Below, piece after piece: positions 17,114 through 30,309 of a DNA stretch of 46,121 nucleotides (the stretch's first letter is position 1; the number at the start of each line of letters is the position of its first letter). The DNA is taken from positions 1-46,121 of the forward strand of contig QWHN01000004.1 of assembly GCA_021404905.1 (NCBI GenBank), in the 5' to 3' direction. Position numbers and translations under genes: made by a program. Origin of the DNA: Candidatus Saccharibacteria bacterium CPR2 (GTDB lineage: Bacteria; Patescibacteriota; Saccharimonadia; Saccharimonadales; QWHN01). Below the pieces are notes generated by a model, which searched no databases, was not told the origin of the DNA, and was given only the letters and a program-made list of their open reading frames with translations.

Positions 17114-18601
17114 ATGCCAAACCCGGAATCAACACAACAAACAGAAATACTACAAGAGAAGACTATAGAGCAAGAAACAGACAATCTGAGATTTAAAAGA
17201 ATCAAAAGTTTAATAGGTAAAGTAGCTTTATCGTTGACACTGGTAACTGGCGCGGGAATCGGAGCTGTTGCAGAAGAAGTAGTTAATCCACAGCCGGCAG
17301 AAGCTACAGAATTTGTTAATGATTATCCGAATTTAAATGCAAGCCCATATAATCCATCTGCCTATGAATGGTGGGTTGACGAAAACGGCAATGGCCATCC
17401 AGATGTTAACAATGAACTTATAAGTCCACGTAATTACTATTACCGTAATTGTACTGACGGTGCTGCATATTGGACAGCTAAATATACAGGAGTTAATGTT
17501 ACGGGATGGGGTAATGCTGTAAATTGGGATAATGCTGCTACTGCTTACACTGTAAAACCTGGTAATTCAAATAGCATTGAGCCGGGAGATATTGCCCAGA
17601 GTGACGATGATGGATACTATGGTCATGTAGGTTTTGTGGCAAATGTGGCTAAAGACGCAAGCGGTAACATTACAGCTGTTAATGTTGCGGAACTAAATAA
17701 AGTGGGTACGGGAGAATATAGTTACAGCACATATACATCAAAAAATGCTTCTGGAAAATTTACTCGTGGTGGCACAAAAGACTGGGATCATTTTATAGAT
17801 GTCAATGGAGCTGGCAAAGGGCTGAATGGCGATGTCTTGGGGGGTGGCAACAATGGTGGCAGTGGCGGAAATGGCAACGGCGGAGGCAGCAACGGCATTG
17901 ACACTATAGGTGTTTATAATCCCAATATTGCTACTTTCGATTTACGCAACAGCAACACAACAGGGATTCATGACGTAACACTAGCATATGGAAATATTGG
18001 AGCTGTGGCTCTAACCGGCGACTGGAACGGAGATGGCATTGACACCATCGGTGTCTATAACCCAAGTTTGGCAACATTCGATCTGCGCAATAGTAACACA
18101 ACTGGAAACCATGATATAACTCTTGCTTATGGTAATATTGGCGCGAAACCCCTAGTCGGAGATTGGAATGGTGACGGCATAGATACGATTGGAGTGTATA
18201 ATCCAACACTCGGTACATTTGATCTCAGAAATAGTAATACAACCGGCAATCATGATATAACCCTAGCGTACGGAAACATTGGTGCCATTCCGCTTGTAGG
18301 AGATTGGAACGGGGATGGTATAGACACGATCGGCGTGTACAACCCAAGTTTAGCCACCTTTGATCTACGAAATAGCAATACCACTGGTATCCACGACATT
18401 ACTCTAGCTTATGGAAATATAGGCGCCATCCCTGTGGTCGGAGATTGGAATGGTGACGGCATAGATACTATAGGTGTATATAACCCTACACTTGGCACCT
18501 TTGATCTACGAAATAGCAATACAACAGGTAACCATGACATCACTCTTGCATACGGAAATATTGGTGCCAAGCCGATTATAGGCGACTGGAACGGACAATA
18601 A
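17114..18601 (+). CDS. CHAP-domain peptidoglycan hydrolase with five 47-aa FG-GAP-like (GDWNGDG) repeats
   Basis: CHAP motifs RNCTD, GWGNA..W and YGHVGFV; Gly/Asn linker; five GIDTIGVYNP...GDWNGD repeats. Confidence 0.88.
   Translation: MPNPESTQQTEILQEKTIEQETDNLRFKRIKSLIGKVALSLTLVTGAGIGAVAEEVVNPQPAEATEFVNDYPNLNASPYNPSAYEWWVDENGNGHPDVNNELISPRNYYYRNCTDGAAYWTAKYTGVNVTGWGNAVNWDNAATAYTVKPGNSNSIEPGDIAQSDDDGYYGHVGFVANVAKDASGNITAVNVAELNKVGTGEYSYSTYTSKNASGKFTRGGTKDWDHFIDVNGAGKGLNGDVLGGGNNGGSGGNGNGGGSNGIDTIGVYNPNIATFDLRNSNTTGIHDVTLAYGNIGAVALTGDWNGDGIDTIGVYNPSLATFDLRNSNTTGNHDITLAYGNIGAKPLVGDWNGDGIDTIGVYNPTLGTFDLRNSNTTGNHDITLAYGNIGAIPLVGDWNGDGIDTIGVYNPSLATFDLRNSNTTGIHDITLAYGNIGAIPVVGDWNGDGIDTIGVYNPTLGTFDLRNSNTTGNHDITLAYGNIGAKPIIGDWNGQ
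17894..18598 (+). repeat. Five tandem 141-bp coding repeats
   Basis: 5 x 141 bp exactly fills 17894-18598; near-identical protein, many synonymous differences. Confidence 0.9.
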
Positions 18602-18602
18602 T

Positions 18603-18750
18603 TGGCGACCCCAGGGGGAGTCCGTCGTCAGCTTCGCTTCCTTTGGGGAAATCTTCGGCGATTCTCGAAAACCTTTGGTTTTCTGCGCCGTTGCCTTGAT
18701 TATCGAACCCCTGTTTTCCCGATGCAATCGGGATGCTTAGGCCACTAGAC
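18603..18750 (-). pseudogene. Degenerate tRNA relic / distal att site, with an 82-nt insertion in the T-arm
   Basis: 18603-18619 matches 30234-30250 at 16/17; 18702-18750 matches 30251-30300 at 41/50; the 5' acceptor strand is absent. Confidence 0.75.
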
Positions 18751-18926
18751 TAATAATTAAGTACTATGGCAACAAATATCTCTATCTAGCCATTTTCTTT
18801 AATTTGGTGAACTATCAAATATCGGATTGGAACCAACTCAAGAAGGAATTGGTCTCCTGGAATACTGTACTAGATAGACCGTCAGTTAAAAAGGTGCGTG
18901 AATTAGTACTGGCGTAGACTGGAACC

Positions 18927-19823
18927 TTATATAAGAGGTTGGTTGCGAGAATAGTGGTCCGAGTTTTTTGTATAAGTAATAGCTTGAACGATGTCTAACA
19001 GACTACTGCCTTCTAGTGAAACATTAGCGTTAGGATTAAGTAGTACGTGTAAATCCCTTGATTCAGGCAGGTACTCCGTAGTCCAAAGCACTGCTGATAG
19101 GTCCTTATACTCCTCTTTCTGAAAGTAGCCAATTTCAATCTGGCTACCATTTCTGGTAGTTATCGTGCTCCTGGATGAAACGCTACTCGTTGCGGTATTC
19201 GTTGCCGAGTTTATTGTTACCTGTATAGGACCGATGCCCATTACCATTTCTTCAACAATACTCATACCAGATTTACCCATTGCACTCATATAGTTGCTTT
19301 CGGGAAGGCAAAGAGCAATTACGTATGGTGTTGCTGTGTAGTCAATCCTTGATTGGTTGGAACGCAGCCTAGTTTTGAGCTGTTCGTTCTTGGAGTTTAT
19401 AGCTGTTGTTATTCTGCGTGCAATTTCTTCGTCAGGATAGTCATACAGTCTGCCGTCTAATCTTAACTCGGGAACGTCCGTAGGTGCTGGCACTACACAT
19501 TCAGCCACGTACGAATCCGCTAATATATCTGGCTCTCCTGCACCTGGTTTTCTAACCAATTGTTCAAGTAGTAGGAATCTAAGATTTAGCTCCCAAAGTC
19601 TACTGTAAAACTTTGCCTTTTCACGAAACTCGTTGATAAAGTTTGGCTCTGAGAAACCACCGACAGCTTGCCACCTCTTGTTTATTTCGGCTCTGATATC
19701 TGGTCTGATAGCCATCCAAACAAAGTCACGTTGGTAATCTGGATTATTCTTTACGGCATCGTCAATGTCCTTTTGGGACTTTGGGTCAATGCACTCAACT
19801 GGTTCAAATAAGTCTTGCGTCAT
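18927..19823 (-). CDS. Hypothetical protein, putative PD-(D/E)xK-like nuclease fold
   Basis: EPNFINEF...FYSRLWELNL, GEPDIL..YVAECV, PYVIAL, SAVLW, LNPNA pattern. The ATG at 19823 lies 1 nt after the upstream stop. The fold is an inference. Confidence 0.5.
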   Translation of the reverse strand: MTQDLFEPVECIDPKSQKDIDDAVKNNPDYQRDFVWMAIRPDIRAEINKRWQAVGGFSEPNFINEFREKAKFYSRLWELNLRFLLLEQLVRKPGAGEPDILADSYVAECVVPAPTDVPELRLDGRLYDYPDEEIARRITTAINSKNEQLKTRLRSNQSRIDYTATPYVIALCLPESNYMSAMGKSGMSIVEEMVMGIGPIQVTINSATNTATSSVSSRSTITTRNGSQIEIGYFQKEEYKDLSAVLWTTEYLPESRDLHVLLNPNANVSLEGSSLLDIVQAITYTKNSDHYSRNQPLI

Positions 19824-19824
19824 C

Positions 19825-20418
19825 TTAACCTCTGGCAATAAAATCTATACCCGTTTTTGCACTTGTTACCCATTCAGGTTCTTTGTCCTCAAAAATACGT
19901 TTATAGAAATTGTCTATTGCTTGCTCCAGTTCATTTACGTAATTTTTAGTTGCAATTACAAAATAACCCTTGCCGTCAATGCCCATAGGTGGGCAACCTT
20001 TAATTTTTCCGTTCATCTTGGCAACTTTGGCAACTGCAACTGGCGTATAGCTAATAGTGCCGTCTCGTGCTCTACGTTTGATGCGTGGGGCATAGGCGTG
20101 TGTCGCACTATGGCGAAGGTGCTGGTACAGACCCTGTTGCTTGGTGGTTTCGTCACGAATTATCTCGTCTAGACTTCTGAACTCATCTGCTGACGGTAAT
20201 CTAAATAGACAACGATAAAACCGTCTTTCCTCGGTCTTGCCAGTTTCGCCGTTAACTTTAGGTAAGAAAGCTCCTATTACCTCTGTGTAAGTCAGACAAC
20301 CAAGTGCTGTCAGGAAGTTATTCCCAGCACTAACTGAACGCTTTAGGTCAGTAATCATCCAGCCCTTAACTCGCTCATCAAAGAATTTTTTCGCCTCTGT
20401 TAATTTCTCGTCACTCAT
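19825..20418 (-). CDS. HEPN-like protein (RxxxxH)
   Basis: Mainly helical 197 aa; NFLTALGCLTYTEVIGAF helix and YQHLRHSATHAY (R-H-S-A-T-H = RX4H). Confidence 0.6.
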   Translation of the reverse strand: MSDEKLTEAKKFFDERVKGWMITDLKRSVSAGNNFLTALGCLTYTEVIGAFLPKVNGETGKTEERRFYRCLFRLPSADEFRSLDEIIRDETTKQQGLYQHLRHSATHAYAPRIKRRARDGTISYTPVAVAKVAKMNGKIKGCPPMGIDGKGYFVIATKNYVNELEQAIDNFYKRIFEDKEPEWVTSAKTGIDFIARG

Positions 20419-20436
20419 AGGTATATTATACCACTT

Positions 20437-20682
20437 TTACCCCTGTTTTTTCTCCTTGTACATATCGTAAAGTAGTTTGGCTAGTTCCTCGGCATCTTCT
20501 TTACGTTTGTCTCTAAGCACAAGTTCGTCTAATTGTTCCTTTGTTATCGGCTGGTAAACGGTTTTCATCATCAACACCAGCTTTGACAGTTTGCTGTATG
20601 CCGTCTGGTAGTCCAGTTCTTTATTAAACTTTTGCTTGTATAGCCTTTGAAATTCAGCTACGTCTGACTTAGTTAATTCCAT
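20437..20682 (-). CDS. Small helical hypothetical protein of a type I associate with CPR integrative elements
   Basis: 81 aa, MELTKSDVAEFQRLYKQKFNKELDYQTA; GGAGG RBS upstream. Confidence 0.6.
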   Translation of the reverse strand: MELTKSDVAEFQRLYKQKFNKELDYQTAYSKLSKLVLMMKTVYQPITKEQLDELVLRDKRKEDAEELAKLLYDMYKEKKQG

Positions 20683-20836
20683 ATTTTACCTCCACCCTAA
20701 TGTTAAAACGGATACGTATTCTGTACTGCAATTTTGAGCAGTTGACTAGCACTTATTTTATGGTAAAACATTTGATTTAACAGAGGTAATTTGCTATAAT
20801 TATTTACACATACATTAACAATTTGGGGGTAAAATT

Positions 20837-21466
20837 ATGGCAAATAATGACACCAAAAGCACAGCTAAAAAGTCATCATATCGTGGTGGGTACGAGCTAA
20901 AAGTCATCGGCGATTACGAGTTTGATGAAGTCAGTTCTGCGATGCAGAAGATGATTCGCCGAAATCAGGAGTATGAAGCCTGTTGGTGGGCTTACGTGCT
21001 ACACGATAGCGGTTATTACAAATACGTCTGGCGTAGGCTGATGATAATAGCTTCGGAAGATATAGGTAATGCTAACCCGATGGCAGCCATAATGGTAAAT
21101 ACCCTCAGACAGAATTATGAAGCCACTATGGACAGTAAGACCCGATTCGGTGGCAACGGTGCATTGTTCTTATTCCAAGCCATAATGTACCTCTGCTCCT
21201 CCGAAAAGGTACGTGAAGCCGATACTCTAGCCAACTTAGTTATCAAAGAGTTCAAGGACGGTAAACGCCTAGAGATACCAGAGGTCGCCGTAGATGTACA
21301 CACTGCTAGAGGCAAGGCTATACACGGTAAGTGGGAACAAGGCACGGACAAAGAAAAATCGGAGAGAGCGAAAAAATGGTACGAGGTATGGTCAGTCGTA
21401 ACCCCAGCCTCAAAAATGCCAGACAAGTACCTAGATAAGTGGAAAGAAGTGGAGGGTCATCTATGA
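20837..21466 (+). CDS. Stand-alone MgsA/RarA C-terminal-domain-like protein (no AAA+ ATPase module)
   Basis: SAMQKMIRR..EYEACWW, G..KYVWRRLMIIASEDIGNANP match the RarA C-terminal consensus; no Walker A/B in 209 aa. Confidence 0.75.
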   Translation: MANNDTKSTAKKSSYRGGYELKVIGDYEFDEVSSAMQKMIRRNQEYEACWWAYVLHDSGYYKYVWRRLMIIASEDIGNANPMAAIMVNTLRQNYEATMDSKTRFGGNGALFLFQAIMYLCSSEKVREADTLANLVIKEFKDGKRLEIPEVAVDVHTARGKAIHGKWEQGTDKEKSERAKKWYEVWSVVTPASKMPDKYLDKWKEVEGHL

Positions 21467-22356
21467 ACAATTTAGTAGAAGTAACGATACCCAAAGACTA
21501 CACAGCCGTCTTTGATAACTTGGACGTAGCTGAAAGCACCAGAGCCGATTATTGCTACCGATTGCCGTTGTTCGTGGAGTTCGTGAACACTCACGGCTTT
21601 ACACCAAATACGTACTTAGATTATAAAAAGCATTTGCGGACAATGCCGTGGTCAGTATCAACCAAGAATAAGCATCTGATAGTTGCGAGGGTTTTTCTAA
21701 AAGAACTGCACCGCCAAGGCTTAATTCCAACCGACATCACACATAACGTGAAGTCGTTCAAACAAAGCAAGAAGCACAAGAAGCGTGGGCTAAATGACTT
21801 AGAAGCTAAGCGACTAGCTACGTGGCTATCCGAGCGTCCAGATACGCCAGAAAACGACAGGCTAAAAGCTATCTTTTGCTTACTGCTATTACAAGGCTTG
21901 CGTCTTATTGAATTGTGCAGGCTTGACGTTGAAGACATAGACTTTGAAAACGAAGTGCTATATGTGTGGGGTAAAGGACAAGACGATAAAGACCCAATAA
22001 TACTACTGCCTCAAACTGTTTCCTGCTTACGACAATATCTAAAGAGTAACGGACTAAAAGAAGGTGCATTATTCAGGAGTAACAGTCACAGTCAAATGGG
22101 TCAAAGATTATCTACTCGTGGGCTTCGTGAAATTGTAATGGTCATATTCAAAATGCTGAACATCAACAAGACAGCTCACGGTACACGGCACTTCTACACT
22201 AGTCAGTTACTTCTGATTATGCCTGGACATTTAATAGATGTAGCCCTGTACACCAGACACCGTAGCATAGAGATGTTAAGAGTTTACGATAATCGCAACA
22301 AACAGGACTACACTTTAGATAAAGTCGTATCGGCGTTTGCAGGCATTAACTTTTAA
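21463..22356 (+). CDS. Tyrosine recombinase (Xer/integrase family)
   Basis: GLRLIEL (R), GKG (K), AHGTRH (HxxR), RHRSIEMLRVY (H..Y). The ATG at 21463 overlaps the upstream TGA. Confidence 0.9.
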   Translation: MNNLVEVTIPKDYTAVFDNLDVAESTRADYCYRLPLFVEFVNTHGFTPNTYLDYKKHLRTMPWSVSTKNKHLIVARVFLKELHRQGLIPTDITHNVKSFKQSKKHKKRGLNDLEAKRLATWLSERPDTPENDRLKAIFCLLLLQGLRLIELCRLDVEDIDFENEVLYVWGKGQDDKDPIILLPQTVSCLRQYLKSNGLKEGALFRSNSHSQMGQRLSTRGLREIVMVIFKMLNINKTAHGTRHFYTSQLLLIMPGHLIDVALYTRHRSIEMLRVYDNRNKQDYTLDKVVSAFAGINF

Positions 22357-22660
22357 GCCACTACGAGCTAAAAGCCCTAACAAGCCCCTGCAATTTCCCT
22401 AACTTAGCCCTACAAAAACGCTGTTTTGAGCTAAATAGTCCAACAATTCCCTACAAATTGGTAGGCAAAATCTAGGTTTTTGACGGATTTTTGCCTATTT
22501 TTTTAGGGAAAAGGCTGGAAATAGGTAGGGTAAGCCCAGTCATTTACTGCCAATAACTATAATTACAAGCACTAAACTTACTCCCTAAAAAATATAAAAT
22601 TGGGCGATTATTGCTAGTTATGTTGTGATTGGTATATCTAAGGAGTTAGAATAGATACAT

Positions 22661-24916
22661 ATGATTTTAAGCGACAATGAAAAAAGAGATGTTATAAAGT
22701 ACCTTGAAGCAGGAAAACCATTACCCGAAAAGTATCGCTTTCTACTCTTTGAAGATGACCGTGAAGTTGAACTACTATGGAACGGCAAAACTGACGAAGT
22801 TACCACCACCGTTCTACCATTCCAAGTAATTGAACAGATTGACGAACCAAGAAGTGACGATAGGATTGGCTTACAATCAACGTTATTTGATGATACTGGT
22901 CGGCAGATAACTGGCTGGACTAATAAGCTAATTTGGGGCGATAACAAGCTTATACTTTCTTCGCTAAAAAACGGCCCTATGAGAAAAGAAATAGAAGCTC
23001 AAGGCGGTCTCAAGCTAATTTACATTGACCCCCCGTTTGACGTAGGTGCGGACTTCTCAATGGAGTTAAAAATTGGTGAGGGTGACGATGAGGAAACATT
23101 TACTAAACGACCCTCAATAATTGAAGAGGTTGCATATAGGGATACTTGGGGTAAGGGTGCTGATAGTTTCATAGCTATGATTTACGAACGTTTAAGGTTG
23201 ATGAACGAACTTCTGGCAGACGATGGCACCATCTATGTCCACTGTGATTGGCGTGTAAGTGGATATATGCGTTTAGTTCTTGATGAAATTTTCGGGAAAA
23301 ATAACTTTGTTAATGAAATTATTTGGCAAAAAGTCAGAGCTTCAAAGGGGCAAGCAAAAGCATTTGGTAATGTACACGACACCATTTTTGCTTATAGAAA
23401 AAACGACTATAACAAGTTTAATAAACAGTATGGTGAGCACGATGAAGCTCGCCTCAAAAGCCACTATAATAATTGGGAAAAAGATGGCAGACAATACCAG
23501 TTAGCAGACTTTACACAAAAAGGACAAGGTGAACCTAAAGTATTCGGAGACAAAGGACTCCTTTATCCACCAACAGGAAAACACTGGATTTGGTCGCAAG
23601 AACGAATAGACGAAGGCTTAAAAGATGGTTTGATTATCTTTACTGACTCAGGAAAGCCTAGAGTAAAAAGGTATTTGGATACCTCGCAAGGTTCACCGAT
23701 TGAAGATATTTGGAATGATATTTTCCCAATAAACTCACAGGCGAAGGAATCGGTTGATTATCCTACCCAGAAGCCAGAAACACTTTTGGAAAGAATAATT
23801 AAAACTTCTTCTGACGAGGGAGACTTAATTGCAGACTTCTTTGTCGGTTCAGGTACAACACTTGCGGTCGCAGAAAAAATGGGACGCAAGTGGATAGGGT
23901 CAGATTTAGGCAAGTTCAGTATACATACATCTAGAAAAAGAATGATAGATGTTCAAAGAAAAAAGAAGAAAGATGGTGAAGATTTTAGGGCTTTTGAGAT
24001 TCTGAACGTTGGTAGATACGAGCGTGAAAATTATGTAGATATTAACGATGACCTTAGAGCAGAAGAAAGAGCAAAACAAGCAAAACACAAAGAAAATGCG
24101 TTCGTTCAACTAATACTATCCGCATATAAAGCAGAGCCCGTTGAGTCGTTTGTAAATTTTGTTGGCAAAAAACGCGACAGACTGGTAGCAGTTGGCCCCA
24201 TTTCAACACCTGTTTCGTCAAAACAAGTTCACGACATCGTTAGCGAATGTAAAGACAAAGGCATAACCAAAGTTGATATTCTAGGCTTTGATTATGAGAT
24301 GGGTCTAGATTTTCAAGAGTATGCAGACCAAGGAGTTGATGTTGCATTCCGAATTATTCCACGAGAAGTATTTGATAAAAAAGCCGTAGAACGAGGCCAC
24401 GTGAAGTTCTATGATGTTGCGTTTATTGAGGCTATGTCAATAGTTAAAGGCCCACAAAATAAAAAGGAATTAACCATAGAACTTACGGATTTCTCTGTGT
24501 TCTATAATCAAGATGATTCTGGTGAGGTGTCAGAAACTTTAAAGCCTGGTGGTTCAAAAGTAATAGTTGAAGATGGTCAGGTAGTTAAAATAACCAAAAA
24601 TAAAGACGGTGGCGGTGAGGTCAAAGAAATTATTACTAAAAAGTGGAGCGATTGGATAGACTACTGGGCGGTTGATTTTAACTTTGCTGATAGAAAAGAA
24701 ATCATAAAGGTGCTTGAGGGCGACGAAGAAAAAGAAGTCTGGACTGGTGATTATATCTTTGATAACGAATGGCAAAGTTTTAGGACAAAGAAAAATCGTA
24801 ATCTTGAACTGACTTCTGCCGCTAGAGAAATAGTTAGAGGAAAACACAAGGTCGCAATAAAAGTAGTTGATATTTTTGGCAACGACACAACAAAAGTTAT
24901 TGAGGTAGAGGTCTAG
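22661..24916 (+). CDS. mod: Type III R-M methyltransferase (Mod)
   Basis: LIYIDPPF, YPTQKPETLLERII, DFFVGSGTT; directly upstream of a Res gene. Confidence 0.92.
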   Translation: MILSDNEKRDVIKYLEAGKPLPEKYRFLLFEDDREVELLWNGKTDEVTTTVLPFQVIEQIDEPRSDDRIGLQSTLFDDTGRQITGWTNKLIWGDNKLILSSLKNGPMRKEIEAQGGLKLIYIDPPFDVGADFSMELKIGEGDDEETFTKRPSIIEEVAYRDTWGKGADSFIAMIYERLRLMNELLADDGTIYVHCDWRVSGYMRLVLDEIFGKNNFVNEIIWQKVRASKGQAKAFGNVHDTIFAYRKNDYNKFNKQYGEHDEARLKSHYNNWEKDGRQYQLADFTQKGQGEPKVFGDKGLLYPPTGKHWIWSQERIDEGLKDGLIIFTDSGKPRVKRYLDTSQGSPIEDIWNDIFPINSQAKESVDYPTQKPETLLERIIKTSSDEGDLIADFFVGSGTTLAVAEKMGRKWIGSDLGKFSIHTSRKRMIDVQRKKKKDGEDFRAFEILNVGRYERENYVDINDDLRAEERAKQAKHKENAFVQLILSAYKAEPVESFVNFVGKKRDRLVAVGPISTPVSSKQVHDIVSECKDKGITKVDILGFDYEMGLDFQEYADQGVDVAFRIIPREVFDKKAVERGHVKFYDVAFIEAMSIVKGPQNKKELTIELTDFSVFYNQDDSGEVSETLKPGGSKVIVEDGQVVKITKNKDGGGEVKEIITKKWSDWIDYWAVDFNFADRKEIIKVLEGDEEKEVWTGDYIFDNEWQSFRTKKNRNLELTSAAREIVRGKHKVAIKVVDIFGNDTTKVIEVEV

Positions 24917-24918
24917 CT

Positions 24919-27606
24919 ATGGCTCTGCACAAGGACTTTCCTAGAGACCCATACGCAATTCTAGACCCTAGTATCAGATGGTTTCCTGCTGATGAGGACT
25001 TGCGTGATAAAGGCCACGAAAAACTTTTACCCCCTCTTGTTGCTGAACTTAGAAAAAAAGTAAAAGATTGGCGGAACGATAATTACAAAGGTGCTAGTGA
25101 AACTTCACAAGCCCTGCTTAACTGGTGGTTCAAAGAGGACCACATACTTTATAACGCAGATGGTACATCATTCAACTTCCGATACTACTTTGCACAAAGA
25201 GAGGCCTTGGAGACTGTTGTGTGGCTCTATGAGGTCGCTCAAGTAAAAGACAAGTATGATTTGATACGCTACAACTCTACAGGTGTTATAAGTGCTGGTA
25301 TGTTCCCTGAGGAATGGCTAAGGTTTGTAATAAAGATGGCCACTGGTGCAGGTAAGACCAAGGTTATGAGTCTCGTGTTAGCTTGGGCTTACTTTCACAG
25401 GCTATATGAGGACGATTCACAGCTTGCAAAGAACTTTTTACTAATAACACCCAACGTTATCGTCTTTGAAAGAATAAAGAACGATTTTGAGGGCTTAAAG
25501 ATTTTTTATCAGGACCCTATATTGCCTGAAAACGGTTATAGAGGCCAAAACTGGCAAGACGACTTCCAAGTTACCCTGCACCTACAAGATGAACTACGCA
25601 ATATATCTGATACTGGCAACATATTCTTAACAAACATTCACAGGGTGTTTGAAAGCGATGTTAGAGCACCTAGAGCTGATGACGAAGATTCAAGTGCATA
25701 TTTTCTTGGTAGCAAGCCAGTTACCAAAACCAATGATTCAACTGTTGATTTAGGAATGATTGTCAGGGATATTGACGAACTTATCGTTATAAACGACGAA
25801 GCCCACCATATCTGGGACGAGAAGATGGCTTGGGCTAAGTCTATTCAGGATATTGACAATCAGCTAAAGCAAAAAGGCTCTGGTCTTGCCCTGCAACTTG
25901 ACGTTACTGCAACACCAAAAAAGCGAGACGGTTCAATTTTTGTGCAAACAATATCTGACTACCCGCTTGTTGAAGCAATACACCAAAGAATTGTTAAAAA
26001 TCCAGTTGTGCCTGACGCTGCAAGCCGAGGCAAGCTACAAGAGAATCAGAGTTCATTGTTCAGCGAAAAGTATCGTGACTTTATAAACCTTGGTGTTGAG
26101 GAATGGAGAAAGACTTACAAGACCCTAGAGCCTATGGGCAAAAAGTCAATTCTGTTCATTATGACTGACGATACTAAGAATTGTGATGAGGTCGCTGGCT
26201 ATATCAAAGATACCTTTTCAGACTTACGAAACGCTGTGCTGACGATTCACACCAACAAAAGCGGTGATATATCCGAAACTACAAGCGGCAAGAACAAAGA
26301 CGAGCTTGAACTACTACGCAAACAAGCTAACGAAATAGATAGCTGGGAAAGCCCTTTCAAGGTCATTGTGTCGGTGATGATGCTAAAAGAAGGTTGGGAC
26401 GTAAAGAACGTTACTACCATTGTGGGACTACGTCCTTATGCTGCCGATTCAAAGATTCTACCCGAACAAACTCTAGGTCGTGGTCTAAGGCGAATGTTCT
26501 TTGGTAATGACGAAGTTGAAGAATATGTGAGCGTCATTGGTACTCCTGCGTTTATGGAGTTCGTTGAATCTATCAAGGGTGAAGGCGTGATACTTGAGAA
26601 GAAAGCTATGGGAACTGGTGCTAAACCTATTGCTCCAACAGTTATTGAAGTAGACCGAGAAAATCCAAACAAAGATATTGAAAAGTTGGACATAGAGATT
26701 CCTGTAATGACACCACGTATTGAACGTGAGTATAAGAACCTTGCAGACCTAGACGTTACGAAGTTTGACAACAAGCGTGTTGCCGTAAAAACCTTTAGTG
26801 AAGAAGAAAAGCGAGAGATTGTATTCAAGGACGTTGTTGGCGAAAGCCATCATCACACAACTGTTCTTAACGGTAACCTTACGCCGAACTACCAGAGCGT
26901 TGTTGGATTCTTTGTGCAAGCCATAATGCGAGAACTGAGGCTCTTTGGTTGTTACGATATTCTATTCGGCAAAGTGAAGGCTTTCATTGAACATCAACTG
27001 TTTGTGGAAGATATTGAGCTGACCGACTTGAATATACTTAGAAACTTATCAGAAGTTGAATACATCAAGTTGATACGAGAGACTTTCAAGAAAGCCATAA
27101 ACGAACTTACCGTACAGGATAGTGGTGACACCGAAATAAAGAACTACATTAAGATTAGCGAATCACGACCCTTCGTGGTAAACGACAAAGGATTCTTACT
27201 TCCCAAGAAATCAGTGTTTAATAAAATTGTCGGTGACGGTGGTTTTGAGCTTGAGTTCTCTGGATTTCTGGAAAGTTGCGACGATATAATTTCGTTTTCA
27301 AAGAACTTCCAGAACAAGGAAGCCAATGCCCTTAGGATTGAGTACAAGAACTCGGAAGGCTTCATAGCTTATTACTACCCCGATTTCTTTGTAAAGACTA
27401 CACCTAAGACTGTTTACATAGTAGAGACAAAAGGTCGCGAAGAAGAAGATGACAAACTTAAGTTTGAGCGGCTTGAGAAATGGTGTGATGACGTTAATAA
27501 CAGACAAAGCAAAATGTCCTACAAAGCAATTTACGTTAAGCAGTCTGAGTGGAACAAAGACAAGTTGAAGAACTTTGATGAAGTAGTTCGTGTATTTGGG
27601 GATTAG
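24919..27606 (+). CDS. res: Type III R-M restriction subunit (Res; SF2 helicase + PD-(D/E)xK)
   Basis: YFAQREA, KMATGAGKT, NDEAHH, TATP, LKEGWDV, EQTLGRGLR; C-terminal YYPDF..IVETKG. Confidence 0.92.
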   Translation: MALHKDFPRDPYAILDPSIRWFPADEDLRDKGHEKLLPPLVAELRKKVKDWRNDNYKGASETSQALLNWWFKEDHILYNADGTSFNFRYYFAQREALETVVWLYEVAQVKDKYDLIRYNSTGVISAGMFPEEWLRFVIKMATGAGKTKVMSLVLAWAYFHRLYEDDSQLAKNFLLITPNVIVFERIKNDFEGLKIFYQDPILPENGYRGQNWQDDFQVTLHLQDELRNISDTGNIFLTNIHRVFESDVRAPRADDEDSSAYFLGSKPVTKTNDSTVDLGMIVRDIDELIVINDEAHHIWDEKMAWAKSIQDIDNQLKQKGSGLALQLDVTATPKKRDGSIFVQTISDYPLVEAIHQRIVKNPVVPDAASRGKLQENQSSLFSEKYRDFINLGVEEWRKTYKTLEPMGKKSILFIMTDDTKNCDEVAGYIKDTFSDLRNAVLTIHTNKSGDISETTSGKNKDELELLRKQANEIDSWESPFKVIVSVMMLKEGWDVKNVTTIVGLRPYAADSKILPEQTLGRGLRRMFFGNDEVEEYVSVIGTPAFMEFVESIKGEGVILEKKAMGTGAKPIAPTVIEVDRENPNKDIEKLDIEIPVMTPRIEREYKNLADLDVTKFDNKRVAVKTFSEEEKREIVFKDVVGESHHHTTVLNGNLTPNYQSVVGFFVQAIMRELRLFGCYDILFGKVKAFIEHQLFVEDIELTDLNILRNLSEVEYIKLIRETFKKAINELTVQDSGDTEIKNYIKISESRPFVVNDKGFLLPKKSVFNKIVGDGGFELEFSGFLESCDDIISFSKNFQNKEANALRIEYKNSEGFIAYYYPDFFVKTTPKTVYIVETKGREEEDDKLKFERLEKWCDDVNNRQSKMSYKAIYVKQSEWNKDKLKNFDEVVRVFGD

Positions 27607-27612
27607 GTTGAT

Positions 27613-28347
27613 ATGTCGCTCTCACCGGAAGATAAGTATCATCTGGATAAGTGGTGGCTACTGCAAGAGTTAAAAGCTGAATATCTAGTATCGGACTCTT
27701 ACGAGCTGAGTACCGTATTCCATCTAAGAGAAAATAACGCACCAACTAAGCTAGTTCAGGAGAGATTATTAAAGCAGCTAGCTTCTAAAGAAGCATTTGA
27801 GCTAGAGAAGATTGACGACAATTCGTACAAGGTTGTGTTTTTGCATAACTTCACAAAAGCATATAACGCTACGGACCTTTGGTTTAGAGACTTCTATGCG
27901 ACAACGGGCATAAAACCAGAATATGAAACAATTCCTACCGCAAAGCCAGAGTTAATTACCGTTAGGCTATCAAAAGAAGGCAGAGGGCTGTGGTTAGTTG
28001 CTGGTGAAGATGACCAAGTATTACTAAATAGATTCGCGTCTAATAGGCCACCTGACTTGATATTTGGCTATTTAATAAACAATAGGCCTGGTTCATTAGT
28101 TAGATTGGGCGAACTTAAAAGAGAATTTGAGAATGTGGGGAAAGTTAGTAATTTAGAGGACCTGGTGCGTAAGGTTGGGTTTGATAAAGAACTTAAAAAA
28201 CTATTCTTCAAACGCTCTGGAGCCAAAGAATTAGAGCTAACAAATCCAATTCAAATTACTGGTTCTGAGTGGCAAGAAATAAAGCAAAAATTGGAAACGT
28301 CAAGAACCGGCAAAAAACCGGCAAGTTCAAACTCTAGCAAACTGTAG
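27613..28347 (+). CDS. Hypothetical protein (possible C-terminal winged helix)
   Basis: 244-aa ORF 6 nt after res; no clear motif. Confidence 0.5.
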   Translation: MSLSPEDKYHLDKWWLLQELKAEYLVSDSYELSTVFHLRENNAPTKLVQERLLKQLASKEAFELEKIDDNSYKVVFLHNFTKAYNATDLWFRDFYATTGIKPEYETIPTAKPELITVRLSKEGRGLWLVAGEDDQVLLNRFASNRPPDLIFGYLINNRPGSLVRLGELKREFENVGKVSNLEDLVRKVGFDKELKKLFFKRSGAKELELTNPIQITGSEWQEIKQKLETSRTGKKPASSNSSKL

Positions 28348-28421
28348 CAAAATTCAATTCTCAAAAATCATTCCGGCGTTGCCTGAAAGCATTTTTTGTA
28401 ACCCCTATACTTCCGCTTGCA

Positions 28422-28598
28422 ATGAACAGCAAGCAGGACAAAATCATAACAACTAGCGAAATGCGAAAGCTACTTGGAAAGGAGTATGCCAGCATTTCAG
28501 ACAGTGAGGTTGACACTGTCATAGTTCAGCTTGAGTTGATGGCAGAAATAGCAATTAAACGCATCAAGAAAGACCTCGTGGTTCCAAAGTCTACGTAG
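28422..28598 (+). CDS. 58-aa protein upstream of the serine recombinase (missing from the ORF track)
   Basis: MNSKQDKIITTSEMRKLLGKEYASISDSEVDTVIVQLELMAEIAIKRIKKDLVVPKST*, ATG 28422 to TAG 28598. Confidence 0.55.
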   Translation: MNSKQDKIITTSEMRKLLGKEYASISDSEVDTVIVQLELMAEIAIKRIKKDLVVPKST

Positions 28599-28642
28599 GT
28601 TACTTGTATGCAGTTTTTAATAGAACATAATAGGGGTTACAA

Positions 28643-30274
28643 ATGAAAGTCGTAATTTACACAAGGGTCTCTACGGTTGAGCAGGCTGAAAAGAATAAGA
28701 GCCTAGAGGTCCAGGAAAAAGCCTGCCGTGACTATGTCGCAAGACATAACTTAGGTGATGTTGTTGAGGTTTACAAAGAAGAAGGAGAAAGTGCCAAGAC
28801 AGCTAATCGTACTCAATTAAAAAGAATGTTAAGGGAGTTGGCTAGCGACCATAAAGAAGTCAGGCATTTGATAGTCTTTAAGTTGGATAGGCTGGCAAGA
28901 CGAACAGAGGACCACATAGCATTAGCAAACATACTTGTTAAGCTGGGAGTTAAACTACACTCCGCTACAGAAGTCCTTGAGGACACACCGTCAGGTAAGT
29001 TAATGGAGCATATACTTGCATCGTTTGCTGAGTTTGATAATTCAGTACGTTCTGAGCGTTCAGCCAAAGGAATGATGGCTAGATTACAAGAAGGTGGCTG
29101 GGTACACTTAGCACCGATTGGCTACAGAAATATCAAGGACTCACTAGGTCGTCCTACTGTAGAGCCTGATGAAATGGCTAAACCAGTACAAAAATTCCTT
29201 AAAGACTTTGCAAAAGGATTATACAACCAAGACAACGCTGCTGAGTTAGCAGCAACAAAGTACAAAATAAAGGCCAGAAGCTACAGTATAGTCAACGGTA
29301 AACGTAAGTACAGTAAAAACTACGATAAACCTGTTGGGAAAAGCACGGTCTACTCTATGCTTAGAAATCCTTTGTATGCAGGATACGTAACCGGCAAAGG
29401 TATTGACGAACCAATCAAGGGTCTGCATATGCACAATGCTCTGATAACAAAAGATGAGTTTGATGCAATTCAGATGATATTAACTGGTACCGATAAGCCA
29501 GTGTTGCGACCCTATGGGGTTAATAAAGAATACTGGCCATTACGTAGGTACTTACGTTGTGCTTACTGCAATAGCCATCTTACAGGTAGCAGGTCTAAAG
29601 GTAGAAATGATACTTATGAGTACTACCACTGCACAAGGTGCAAGGGTGTAAAAGTTAAAGGCGAGACATATAAGCACCTTACCTTGCCTCGTCAGACTGT
29701 ACACGATGCTTATCTGAGACTTATGGAGGGCGTTCAGCCCTCCGTAGGTGCCTTGCGAGCCTTCAAAGAGATTGTTGTGCGTAAATGGAATGCTGATTAT
29801 GCTGCTACCATTGCAAGACGTGGCAGTGTTGAGGCTGACATTTCTGCACTGGACAAGAAAAAGTCTGACTTAATTGAGATGTGTCGTGTTAGTACGATAA
29901 CTGAGGACGAGCTAAAGAACGAGAGAGACAAGATTGCCATTGACCGCTCCAGACTTGAACTAGAGCTCTTAGAAATCAAACAAGAGTTTATTGACACTGA
30001 CCGTGTACTAAATTTGGCTATAGATTTTATGGCAAACGTTGCCAGTATGTGGTCTACAGCACAGGACGACGACAGAGTACGGTTCCAATATATGGCTTTA
30101 CCTGAGGGTGTGACGATAAACGCAAACAAAAAATTTGGAACCGTCAAAATTGGTCTGCCATTTAAGCAAGCTAAAGTGTTAGAAGCCAAGTTATCTGCAT
30201 CAAAAAAGACCCAAAGTAACTCTGAGTCTTTTATGGTGACCCCAGGGGGAATCGAACCCCCGTTTTCAGGATGA
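28643..30274 (+). CDS. Large serine recombinase (integrase)
   Basis: YTRVST (catalytic Ser), KLDRLAR, recombinase domain APIGY, Zn ribbon CAYC...YYHCTRC, coiled coil; the last 13 codons are antisense to the tRNA. Confidence 0.93.
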   Translation: MKVVIYTRVSTVEQAEKNKSLEVQEKACRDYVARHNLGDVVEVYKEEGESAKTANRTQLKRMLRELASDHKEVRHLIVFKLDRLARRTEDHIALANILVKLGVKLHSATEVLEDTPSGKLMEHILASFAEFDNSVRSERSAKGMMARLQEGGWVHLAPIGYRNIKDSLGRPTVEPDEMAKPVQKFLKDFAKGLYNQDNAAELAATKYKIKARSYSIVNGKRKYSKNYDKPVGKSTVYSMLRNPLYAGYVTGKGIDEPIKGLHMHNALITKDEFDAIQMILTGTDKPVLRPYGVNKEYWPLRRYLRCAYCNSHLTGSRSKGRNDTYEYYHCTRCKGVKVKGETYKHLTLPRQTVHDAYLRLMEGVQPSVGALRAFKEIVVRKWNADYAATIARRGSVEADISALDKKKSDLIEMCRVSTITEDELKNERDKIAIDRSRLELELLEIKQEFIDTDRVLNLAIDFMANVASMWSTAQDDDRVRFQYMALPEGVTINANKKFGTVKIGLPFKQAKVLEAKLSASKKTQSNSESFMVTPGGIEPPFSG

Positions 30275-30309
30275 AAACCTGATGTCCTAGGCCACTAGAC
30301 GATGGGGCC
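30234..30309 (-). tRNA. tRNA-Glu (TTC)
   Basis: GGCCCCATCGTCTAGTGGCCTAGGACATCAGGTTTTCATCCTGAAAACGGGGGTTCGATTCCCCCTGGGGTCACCA: 76 nt, cloverleaf, encoded CCA. Confidence 0.97.

Follow-up and report, generated by a model that had tools for sequence, protein, structure and literature searches.

An interrupted tRNA-Glu copy beside a serine-recombinase island of a Saccharibacteria genome looks like an atypical member of a family of folded elements behind tRNA genes

The locus described here raises the question of what a truncated and interrupted copy of a tRNA gene represents when it is found at the edge of an integrated island. The copy, termed the relic, occupies positions 18603 to 18750 of the window, i.e., the whole stretch of 46,121 nucleotides that was analyzed, which corresponds to one contig (C7) of the genome of Candidatus Saccharibacteria bacterium CPR2 (G000; 829 kb, nine contigs, 45 tRNA genes). 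Saccharibacteria have tiny genomes of 0.6 to 1.2 Mb, and the metagenomes containing the source organism derive from bioreactor, sludge and wastewater samples. The sole tRNA called by ARAGORN in the window is a functional tRNA-Glu(UUC) on the minus strand (30234 to 30309), an assignment consistent with the tRNA-Glu genes of relatives. An island lies between this gene and the relic, while on the other side the terminal tRNA-Glu copy of the relic (18603 to 18622) abuts the stop codon of a CHAP gene (17114 to 18601). A previous interpretation made from the letters of the window, referred to here as the sequence-only reading, took the relic for the distal att end of the island and described a 17-bp att repeat followed by an anticodon-switched tRNA that was split by an 82-nt insertion in the T arm.

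The island and its distal junction

The island spans 11.4 kb (18805 to 30233), as delimited by Pfam assignments and a comparison of junctions. Pfam domains identified, among other genes, a large serine recombinase (LSR) gene (28643 to 30274), a type III restriction-modification (R-M) pair (22661 to 27606) and a tyrosine recombinase gene (21439 to 22356). Relatives of the LSR with 62 to 82% identity were always adjoined by a tRNA-Glu on the opposite strand. The last gene of the island, on the minus strand (18927 to 19823), encodes a 298-aa protein, and an exact protein look-up detected this protein on 20 contigs with three different downstream host flanks. The island sequence was common to all three flanks until ...GATAGTTCACCA, with divergence directly after this point, and the end of the island at the three chromosomal junctions was always ...GTTCACCA, equivalent to window position 18805. 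In one flank the island was followed by the relic and the CHAP gene, as in the window; a second flank continued with the end of an unrelated gene and the third with a terminator and then an enolase gene, both of them without the relic. This shared end and the divergence of the host flanks demonstrate that the true distal junction of the island is at 18805 and not at the relic, which is located on the chromosome side, 55 nt beyond the island end. A 6-bp repeat, TGGTGA, is present at both ends of the island (18805 to 18810 and 30234 to 30239); read in the sense of the tRNA, it is the TCACCA formed by the last six nucleotides of tRNA-Glu, which provide the proximal copy of the att core, and the copy at 18805 to 18810 is the distal one.

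The island is, therefore, wedged between tRNA-Glu and the trailer element described below, is no part of that element and does not bring the relic into other hosts. With two of the three host contexts of the island being devoid of the relic, the identification of the relic as the distal att end was abandoned, as were the proposals of an island-borne tRNA mimic or decoy and of a structured attP. The supposed 17-bp repeat (18603 to 18622 against 30234 to 30253) matched at 18 of 20 positions in the repeat finder, with a longest exact run of 13 nt. This 20-nt 'att repeat' is the trailer element's own copy of a tRNA 3′ end, which is present in most members of the family, and it was insertion of the island between tRNA-Glu and the trailer that made the terminal tRNA copy resemble a distal att repeat.

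The distal half-site of the island (18805 to 18840), GGTTCCAATCC-N13-TCACCA, is like the end of the tRNA (30234 to 30260), GGTTCGATTCC-N8-TCACCA, with a spacing that is 5 bp longer, which would be the kind of difference that typically separates attP from attB half-sites in serine integrase systems. Crossover of the island must have occurred within TCACCA. The LSR frame extends 41 nt into the antisense strand of tRNA-Glu; a C terminus encoded across attL in this manner would be expected to change upon excision, the partner sequence being supplied from 18804 and not from 18620. No excision joints or empty-site joint were seen in the contigs of four DNA runs, and exact look-ups of the flanking host proteins for an island-free strain were without result. 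The occurrence of an identical island on three host flanks (L029 to L038, from wastewater and bioreactor assemblies) implies recent spread between Saccharibacteria hosts or loci. Debris of another kind was observed at the same hotspot in relatives, namely 5′ fragments of tRNA-Glu (nucleotides 1 to 17, 41 to 49 or 1 to 33) located 140 to 160 nt upstream of the functional tRNA-Glu (L025:11785-11860 and G012:C5:30927-30959).

A family of folded elements behind tRNA genes

A search with the relic detected a first relative of the 82 nt in another genome (G002), downstream of tRNA-Leu(UAA), where a hairpin was preserved with compensatory and G-U changes. The substitutions between G000 and G002 in a conserved segment of 60 nt led us to reject a coding sequence, only 2 of 10 being located at third codon positions. 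A narrow model (R1), built from the G000 copy and the G002 tRNA-Leu copy, matched only those two in 400 genomes, a misleading indication of a rare element; a weak match in G262 was located within coding sequence. The tRNA-Glu genes of 40 relatives were collected, and partial tRNA copies were sought in their vicinity. At least 10 of 29 related loci had an exact 12- to 22-nt copy of the 3′ end of their own tRNA-Glu 130 to 170 nt downstream, and the sequence between the tRNA and this copy was homologous to the '82 nt' (for example, at the tRNA-Glu locus of G002).

Typical units of this family consist, in order, of a terminator hairpin, an antisense copy of tRNA nucleotides ~40 to 58, a short loop or hairpin, a sense copy of nucleotides ~40 to 58 ending in the T-loop sequence TTCGA, a central domain of 60 to 80 nt and a terminal copy of tRNA nucleotides 59 to 76, including CCA. 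The central domain contains the helices P2 and P3, a hairpin C flanked by GCGCAG...GAGCA and a hairpin D, and this core is placed within the T-loop copy at about nucleotide 58/59. All 33 copies with a neighbouring tRNA were on the strand of that tRNA, with the model match starting 32 to 90 nt downstream, and an exact 3′ suffix of 14 to 20 nt was common to tRNA and copy in ~20 of the 33. The tRNA-derived arms match the local tRNA; subfamilies of the central domain occur across different tRNA loci and genomes. Analysis of nine copies with RNAalifold recovered P2, P3 and hairpin C, with compensatory changes in 13 of 19 pairs. For 54 distinct copies, in an alignment that had been fitted to the model, 88.8% of pair cells were standard pairs, as compared to 62% in column shuffles and 27 to 36% with slid partners; changes on both sides were present in 154 cells versus 43 expected, and 14 of 15 pairs covaried. 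G-U and A-C cells (16 and 11, respectively) were about equally rare, a balance that reveals neither the strand of the fold nor whether it forms in RNA or in DNA.

Membership of the family was defined by the presence of P2, P3 and a hairpin C with GCGCAG...GAG(C/A)A and by a score above noise with a covariance model (R2). With at most 10 candidates scored per genome, a census using R2 detected the element in 262 of 401 genomes of the order, representing 182 of 255 genera. The '82-nt T-arm insertion' of the relic is, therefore, the conserved core of this element and not a private event. Numbers of copies varied from 0 to 13 per genome, the highest being for one genome in which all candidates were scored, and whole families were without any copy. 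Matches to R2 in a sample of 251 genomes of the phylum were restricted to the same class, the Saccharimonadia. No family match to Rfam 15 was obtained for 12 loci at E ≤ 1 or E ≤ 5 except for the tRNA genes, and full-text literature searches aimed at such an element yielded no description; the element is apparently undescribed. Exact-pattern scans of genome, metagenome and viral contigs yielded chance or coding matches only, and BLAST against phages and plasmids yielded nothing.

At least six copies are present in G000, including those after tRNA-Lys(UUU), tRNA-Lys(CUU), tRNA-Met and tRNA-Asp and one with the 3′ end of tRNA-Asn. A putative remnant downstream of tRNA-Leu(UAA) in this genome was discarded, as 272 of 500 shuffles scored as well. 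Copies in other genomes follow Ser, Arg, Trp, Phe, Val, Pro, Gly, Ala, Tyr, Thr, Asn and Leu tRNAs. In one genome (G095), 6 of 11 copies (L137, L141, L143, L147, L155 and L160) had no tRNA on the same strand within 1.5 kb upstream; either islands have been inserted at these loci or the element is able to exist away from tRNAs. The G002 tRNA-Leu copy was considered as a type II pseudo-tRNA and rejected on the grounds that its left part fits no host tRNA; the right part proved to be hairpin D, a module of which G002 has further copies at other sites. One variant of hairpin D, TATATGCGCGAAGGCGCTATAT, recurred in several genomes and at several tRNAs (L082:780-813, L002:1558-1595, L065, L093 and L103) and once in G002 away from any tRNA, which suggests that modules are exchanged between elements.

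Tandem arrays of two to three units, each with its own terminator, were also observed. Units within one array belonged to different subfamilies, indicative of separate arrivals rather than local duplication. The central domain of the G000 tRNA-Met copy exhibited 71 to 73% identity to the tRNA-Glu copies of other genomes versus 61% to the tRNA-Lys(UUU) copy of G000 itself. Three species of one genus differed in the sets of tRNAs served, with only Arg(UCG) and Arg(CCU) being common to all three. No insertion polymorphism was seen within a species. The LSR was rejected as the mobilizing enzyme as it does not track the element, being present in 9 of 12 element-free genomes and 8 of 12 element-rich genomes. 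The arrays of unlike units and the differences within a genus favour a non-autonomous mobile element.

The relic as an atypical member of the family

All parts of the relic are on the minus strand, the strand of tRNA-Glu. After a D-arm remnant, the order on this strand is TCCCG-ATTGCAT-CGGGA, AAAC, AGGGG-TTCGA, the 82 nt and then CT-CCCCC-TGGGGTC-G-CCA. The sense copy (18702 to 18750), detected with the repeat finder and BLAST, covers tRNA-Glu nucleotides 10 to 58 and consists of the D-arm remnant (GTCTAGTGGCCTAAGCA, in which a 1-nt deletion has broken the D stem), a hairpin, the variable loop AAAC, the T-stem 5′ strand AGGGG and the T-loop TTCGA. Identity to the tRNA was 79% in the repeat finder (18702 to 18735 against 30251 to 30284) and ~82% after BLAST extension over 18702 to 18750 (tRNA-Glu nucleotides 10 to 59), in agreement with the previous claim that the tRNA match resumes beyond the 82 nt. 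The central domain (18623 to 18701), delimited by RNAalifold, pair counts and a covariance model score of 76 bits, contains P2 (AATC/GATT, 18650 to 18653 and 18698 to 18701), P3 (CGGCG/CGCCG, 18656 to 18660 and 18686 to 18690), hairpin C (GAAAACC/GGTTTTC, 18667 to 18673 and 18677 to 18683, with flanks GCGCAG...CGAGAA) and the hairpin D region (CCCCAAAGG..GACGACGG, 18623 to 18649). The hairpins that had been noted within the 82 nt (18620 to 18701) were real, P2 and hairpin C being two helices of the covarying family fold. The terminal copy (18603 to 18622) contains the 3′ nucleotides of the T loop, the 3′ strands of the T stem and acceptor stem, a G and CCA. On the other side of the relic is an AT-rich spacer of 54 nt (18751 to 18804), which was directly downstream of tRNA-Glu before arrival of the island; at that time the terminal copy was located 203 nt downstream of tRNA-Glu.

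The relic matched R2 over the full length of the model (18603 to 18718; 76.1 bits, E = 2.7e-17) and aligned with 39 other full-length copies, and its terminal copy is that of the upstream tRNA on the same strand. The spacer, however, has neither the terminator hairpin nor the antisense copy of tRNA nucleotides ~40 to 58 that typical members carry upstream of the sense copy. Elsewhere in the family the sense copy is limited to nucleotides 49 to 58 or ~40 to 58, while that of the relic extends back to nucleotide 10; D-arm or anticodon-arm sequence was present in none of 33 other copies. Because of this long sense copy and of the AT-rich spacer in place of the terminator and antisense arm, the relic was classified as what looks like an atypical, hybrid member of the family. 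The former anticodon arm, hairpin TCCCGATTGCATCGGGA (18717 to 18733), identified by sequence, fold and family comparison, is found at the position, immediately before the T-stem copy, at which a hairpin is present in other members. In addition the relic is a mosaic, its long hairpin C being common only to the G002 tRNA-Leu copy and its tail to tRNA-Glu copies elsewhere.

The relic is not a working tRNA. Its acceptor 5′ strand is missing, as had been recognized, and its D stem is broken; neither ARAGORN nor the Rfam tRNA model RF00005 (no match at E ≤ 5) recognized it, whether the 82 nt were kept or removed. Capture of another host tRNA was rejected, as tRNA-Glu was not surpassed in fit by any other of the 45 tRNAs of the host. 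A relic of a previous host tRNA was similarly discounted: the anticodon stem, G73 and the ATTGCAT loop of the relic were absent from 30 tRNA-Glu genes of 29 related genomes, and a pattern combining its anticodon stem and T stem matched only the relic in 400 genomes.

Relative to tRNA-Glu, the four substitutions in the anticodon-like stem amount to two compensated base-pair swaps (A29-U41 to C-G and G30-C40 to C-G), and pairing is retained as the sequence-only reading had stated. The chance of two fully compensated pairs among four stem substitutions is ~0.005 to 0.01 by our own estimate, made without a tool; the paired changes thus exceed chance, in keeping with the earlier argument against random decay. 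Differences from the tRNA were present at 6 of 17 positions in the old anticodon arm versus ~4 of 33 elsewhere, with pairing being kept and even extended. The loop does read ATTGCAT, but its TGC is an Ala anticodon only in a formal sense, as TCCCGAT-TGC-ATCGGGA can form an alternative 7-bp hairpin with a 3-nt loop. Removal of the core restores a T arm, AAAAC-AGGGG-TTCGACT-CCCCC, that is normal for tRNA-Glu except for an A49-C65 mismatch (compare G022). The relic hairpin, written as TCCCGA-TTGC-ATCGGGA, is nearly identical to the variable arms of tRNA-Ser(GCU) and tRNA-Ser(GGA) of G000 (TCCCGA-GCA/GTG-ATCGGGA), a likeness that could be due to chance or to sequence exchange.

Mobile element, RNA or scar

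The reading that we prefer, with a probability of roughly 0.55, is that the trailer elements are a non-autonomous mobile element and that the relic is one atypical copy. Such an element would insert downstream of a tRNA gene or of a unit already present there, and its folded core would be read by an enzyme supplied in trans. Recombination between two identical T-arm sequences, one in a tRNA-Glu copy and the other in a trailer, may have generated the relic in the order of tRNA 5′ part, core and tRNA 3′ end, with the first nine bases being lost subsequently. Of the old anticodon arm, only a hairpin would then have persisted, at a position where one is usual in the element, and this would account for the compensated stem changes; selection for the hairpin itself, whatever its sequence, is a plausible proposal. 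We infer both the hybrid origin and this selection from one sequence. In a later step the LSR island integrated at TCACCA, between tRNA-Glu and the trailer. The locus-specific tRNA arms count against mobility in that they are hard to fit to a simple cut-and-paste or att-type element, and some copying from the target would be needed. A more specific proposal, which we regard as improbable, is a tRNA-templated mobile element with a folded core of RNA or single-stranded DNA, whose antisense arm and 3′ tail are copied from the target tRNA; the arms would direct, or result from, RNA-guided or tRNA-primed insertion, and the relic, with its order of nucleotides 10 to 58, core and nucleotides 59 to 76, would be a trapped intermediate or a primary product. 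Retroviral primer-binding sites have an 18-nt limit, the same boundary as that between core and tRNA at nucleotide 58/59.

Strong covariation and a preserved T-loop motif would equally fit a functional RNA. A structured noncoding RNA made with or next to tRNAs, with a T-loop module, a K-turn-like internal loop and a tRNA-identical 3′ tail acting in tRNA biology, is thus the principal rival, though it appears distinctly less probable than mobility; the relic would be a variant gene. Enzymes or toxins that recognize tRNA 3′ ends might, for example, encounter the RNA as a mimic or decoy; alternatively, the antisense arm might switch between pairing with the tRNA and pairing with the sense arm, and in this way control folding or processing. 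The conserved loop motifs GCGCAG...GAGCA, the constant orientation, the 3′ end located exactly at CCA and the retention of TTCGA with the domain at nucleotide 58/59 agree with this proposal, and T-loop motifs tolerate insertions at that position. A presence of 0 to 13 copies per genome, the families without the element and the variation of tRNA sets within a genus are, however, unlike a housekeeping RNA; every unit is situated behind a terminator, and there is no excess of G-U over A-C. One metatranscriptome assembly contained a 269-nt contig covering 18509 to 18777, but this run had been picked partly because it contains the words of the relic, only three other short contigs of the run were spread across the 46-kb window, and the trailers of tRNA-Lys(UUU) and tRNA-Met were uncovered. 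The contig is one of several sparse, random pieces and is no evidence of specific expression. No promoter was predicted at the relic. The two remaining explanations fared worse. A passive scar, i.e., a decaying, 5′-truncated pseudo-tRNA-Glu of an older integration with a chance 82-nt insertion, would suit the broken D stem, the absent 5′ acceptor strand and the debris gathered at tRNA-Glu loci of the group (L025 and G012). The census and covariation have largely refuted it, as the 82 nt and terminal 20 nt form a covarying unit of discrete size in hundreds of genomes, which independent decay would not produce, and as the stem changes are compensated; we consider it very unlikely. Least probable of all, to the point of being nearly negligible, is ownership of the relic by the island, whether as a tRNA mimic or decoy or as a structured attP marking the distal att site. 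Proximity to the island end and the 18 of 20 nucleotides in common with the tRNA 3′ end are outweighed by the relic-free island ends in two other hosts, by the island having a degenerate tRNA-like half-site of its own and by the trailers at many tRNAs without any island.

A non-autonomous mobile element of this type has partial counterparts among known systems. Both genomic islands and CIME-type remnants without a recombinase build up in tandem at the 3′ ends of tRNA genes. The trailers are like such remnants in being directly behind a tRNA, in having a 14- to 20-nt direct repeat of the tRNA 3′ end without a recombinase gene and in forming tandem arrays of unlike units, each of which brings a terminator for the sequence ahead of it. 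Direct repeats and the absence of genes thus agree with a CIME, while no excision joints were present in the contig data and no partner enzyme was found; we know of no cognate integrase for the trailer elements. Unlike CIMEs, the trailers are only ~130 to 200 bp with a conserved covarying fold, add sense and antisense copies of tRNA nucleotides ~40 to 58 that are tailored to each locus, and have a core that is inside the T-loop copy rather than beside the repeat, with core subfamilies being common to different tRNAs. The sublocations of integration within tRNA genes were reportedly treated by Williams in 2002, and CIMEs are said to have been treated by Pavlovic et al. in 2004. Similarities to MITEs and hairpin-ended IS200/IS605 derivatives (PATEs) include the small size, lack of coding capacity, multiple copies, patchy distribution, conserved hairpins and ends that are partly inverted copies of each other (TGGTG...CACCA). 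The trailer termini are, however, copies of the local tRNA that differ between loci, which sets these elements apart from MITEs, as do the strict one-strand association with tRNAs and the lack of a constant target duplication and of a matching transposase.

Among tRNA-like noncoding RNAs (YrlA Y-RNA-like RNAs, viral tRNA-like structures and mascRNA), the trailers share a T-arm-like module with TTCGA and a 3′ end composed of a tRNA-identical acceptor 3′ strand and NCCA. They differ in having no acceptor 5′ strand and hence no acceptor stem, in containing a 60- to 80-nt domain in the T loop, in being multicopy and specific for each tRNA and in being without an Rfam match. As leads only, a conserved scaffold followed by a variable 14- to 20-nt match to a tRNA 3′ end resembles TnpB omega-RNA, IS110 bridge RNA and those homing crRNAs of type V-K CAST that match tRNA genes, and the trailer boundary at nucleotide 58/59 coincides with the 18-nt limit of the tRNA primer-binding site in retroelements. 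The trailers differ from these guide-bearing RNAs and retroelements in that no nuclease, recombinase or reverse transcriptase gene is adjacent to them and in that the 'guide' is oriented like the tRNA and located next to its own match.

Two-thirds of the sampled genomes of the order thus give up to 13 intergenic regions to one folded, tRNA-tailored element that is absent from databases. If mobile, it would parasitize tRNA loci and have its arms rebuilt from every target, by a mechanism outside those of known transposons and integrative elements; if an RNA, it would give an episymbiotic lineage a large and novel family of RNAs that mimic tRNA ends. A further consequence concerns annotation, in that the terminal tRNA copy of a trailer imitates an att repeat and hence leads to wrong boundaries for islands located between a tRNA and its trailer, of which G000 has two. 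The second involves another LSR gene (C5:156861-158420) that adjoins tRNA-Asn. A trailer copy (L114; C5:148798-148885) with the exact 3′ end of tRNA-Asn is present 9.46 kb from the tRNA-Asn gene, and this island looks to be wedged in the same manner between tRNA-Asn and its trailer.
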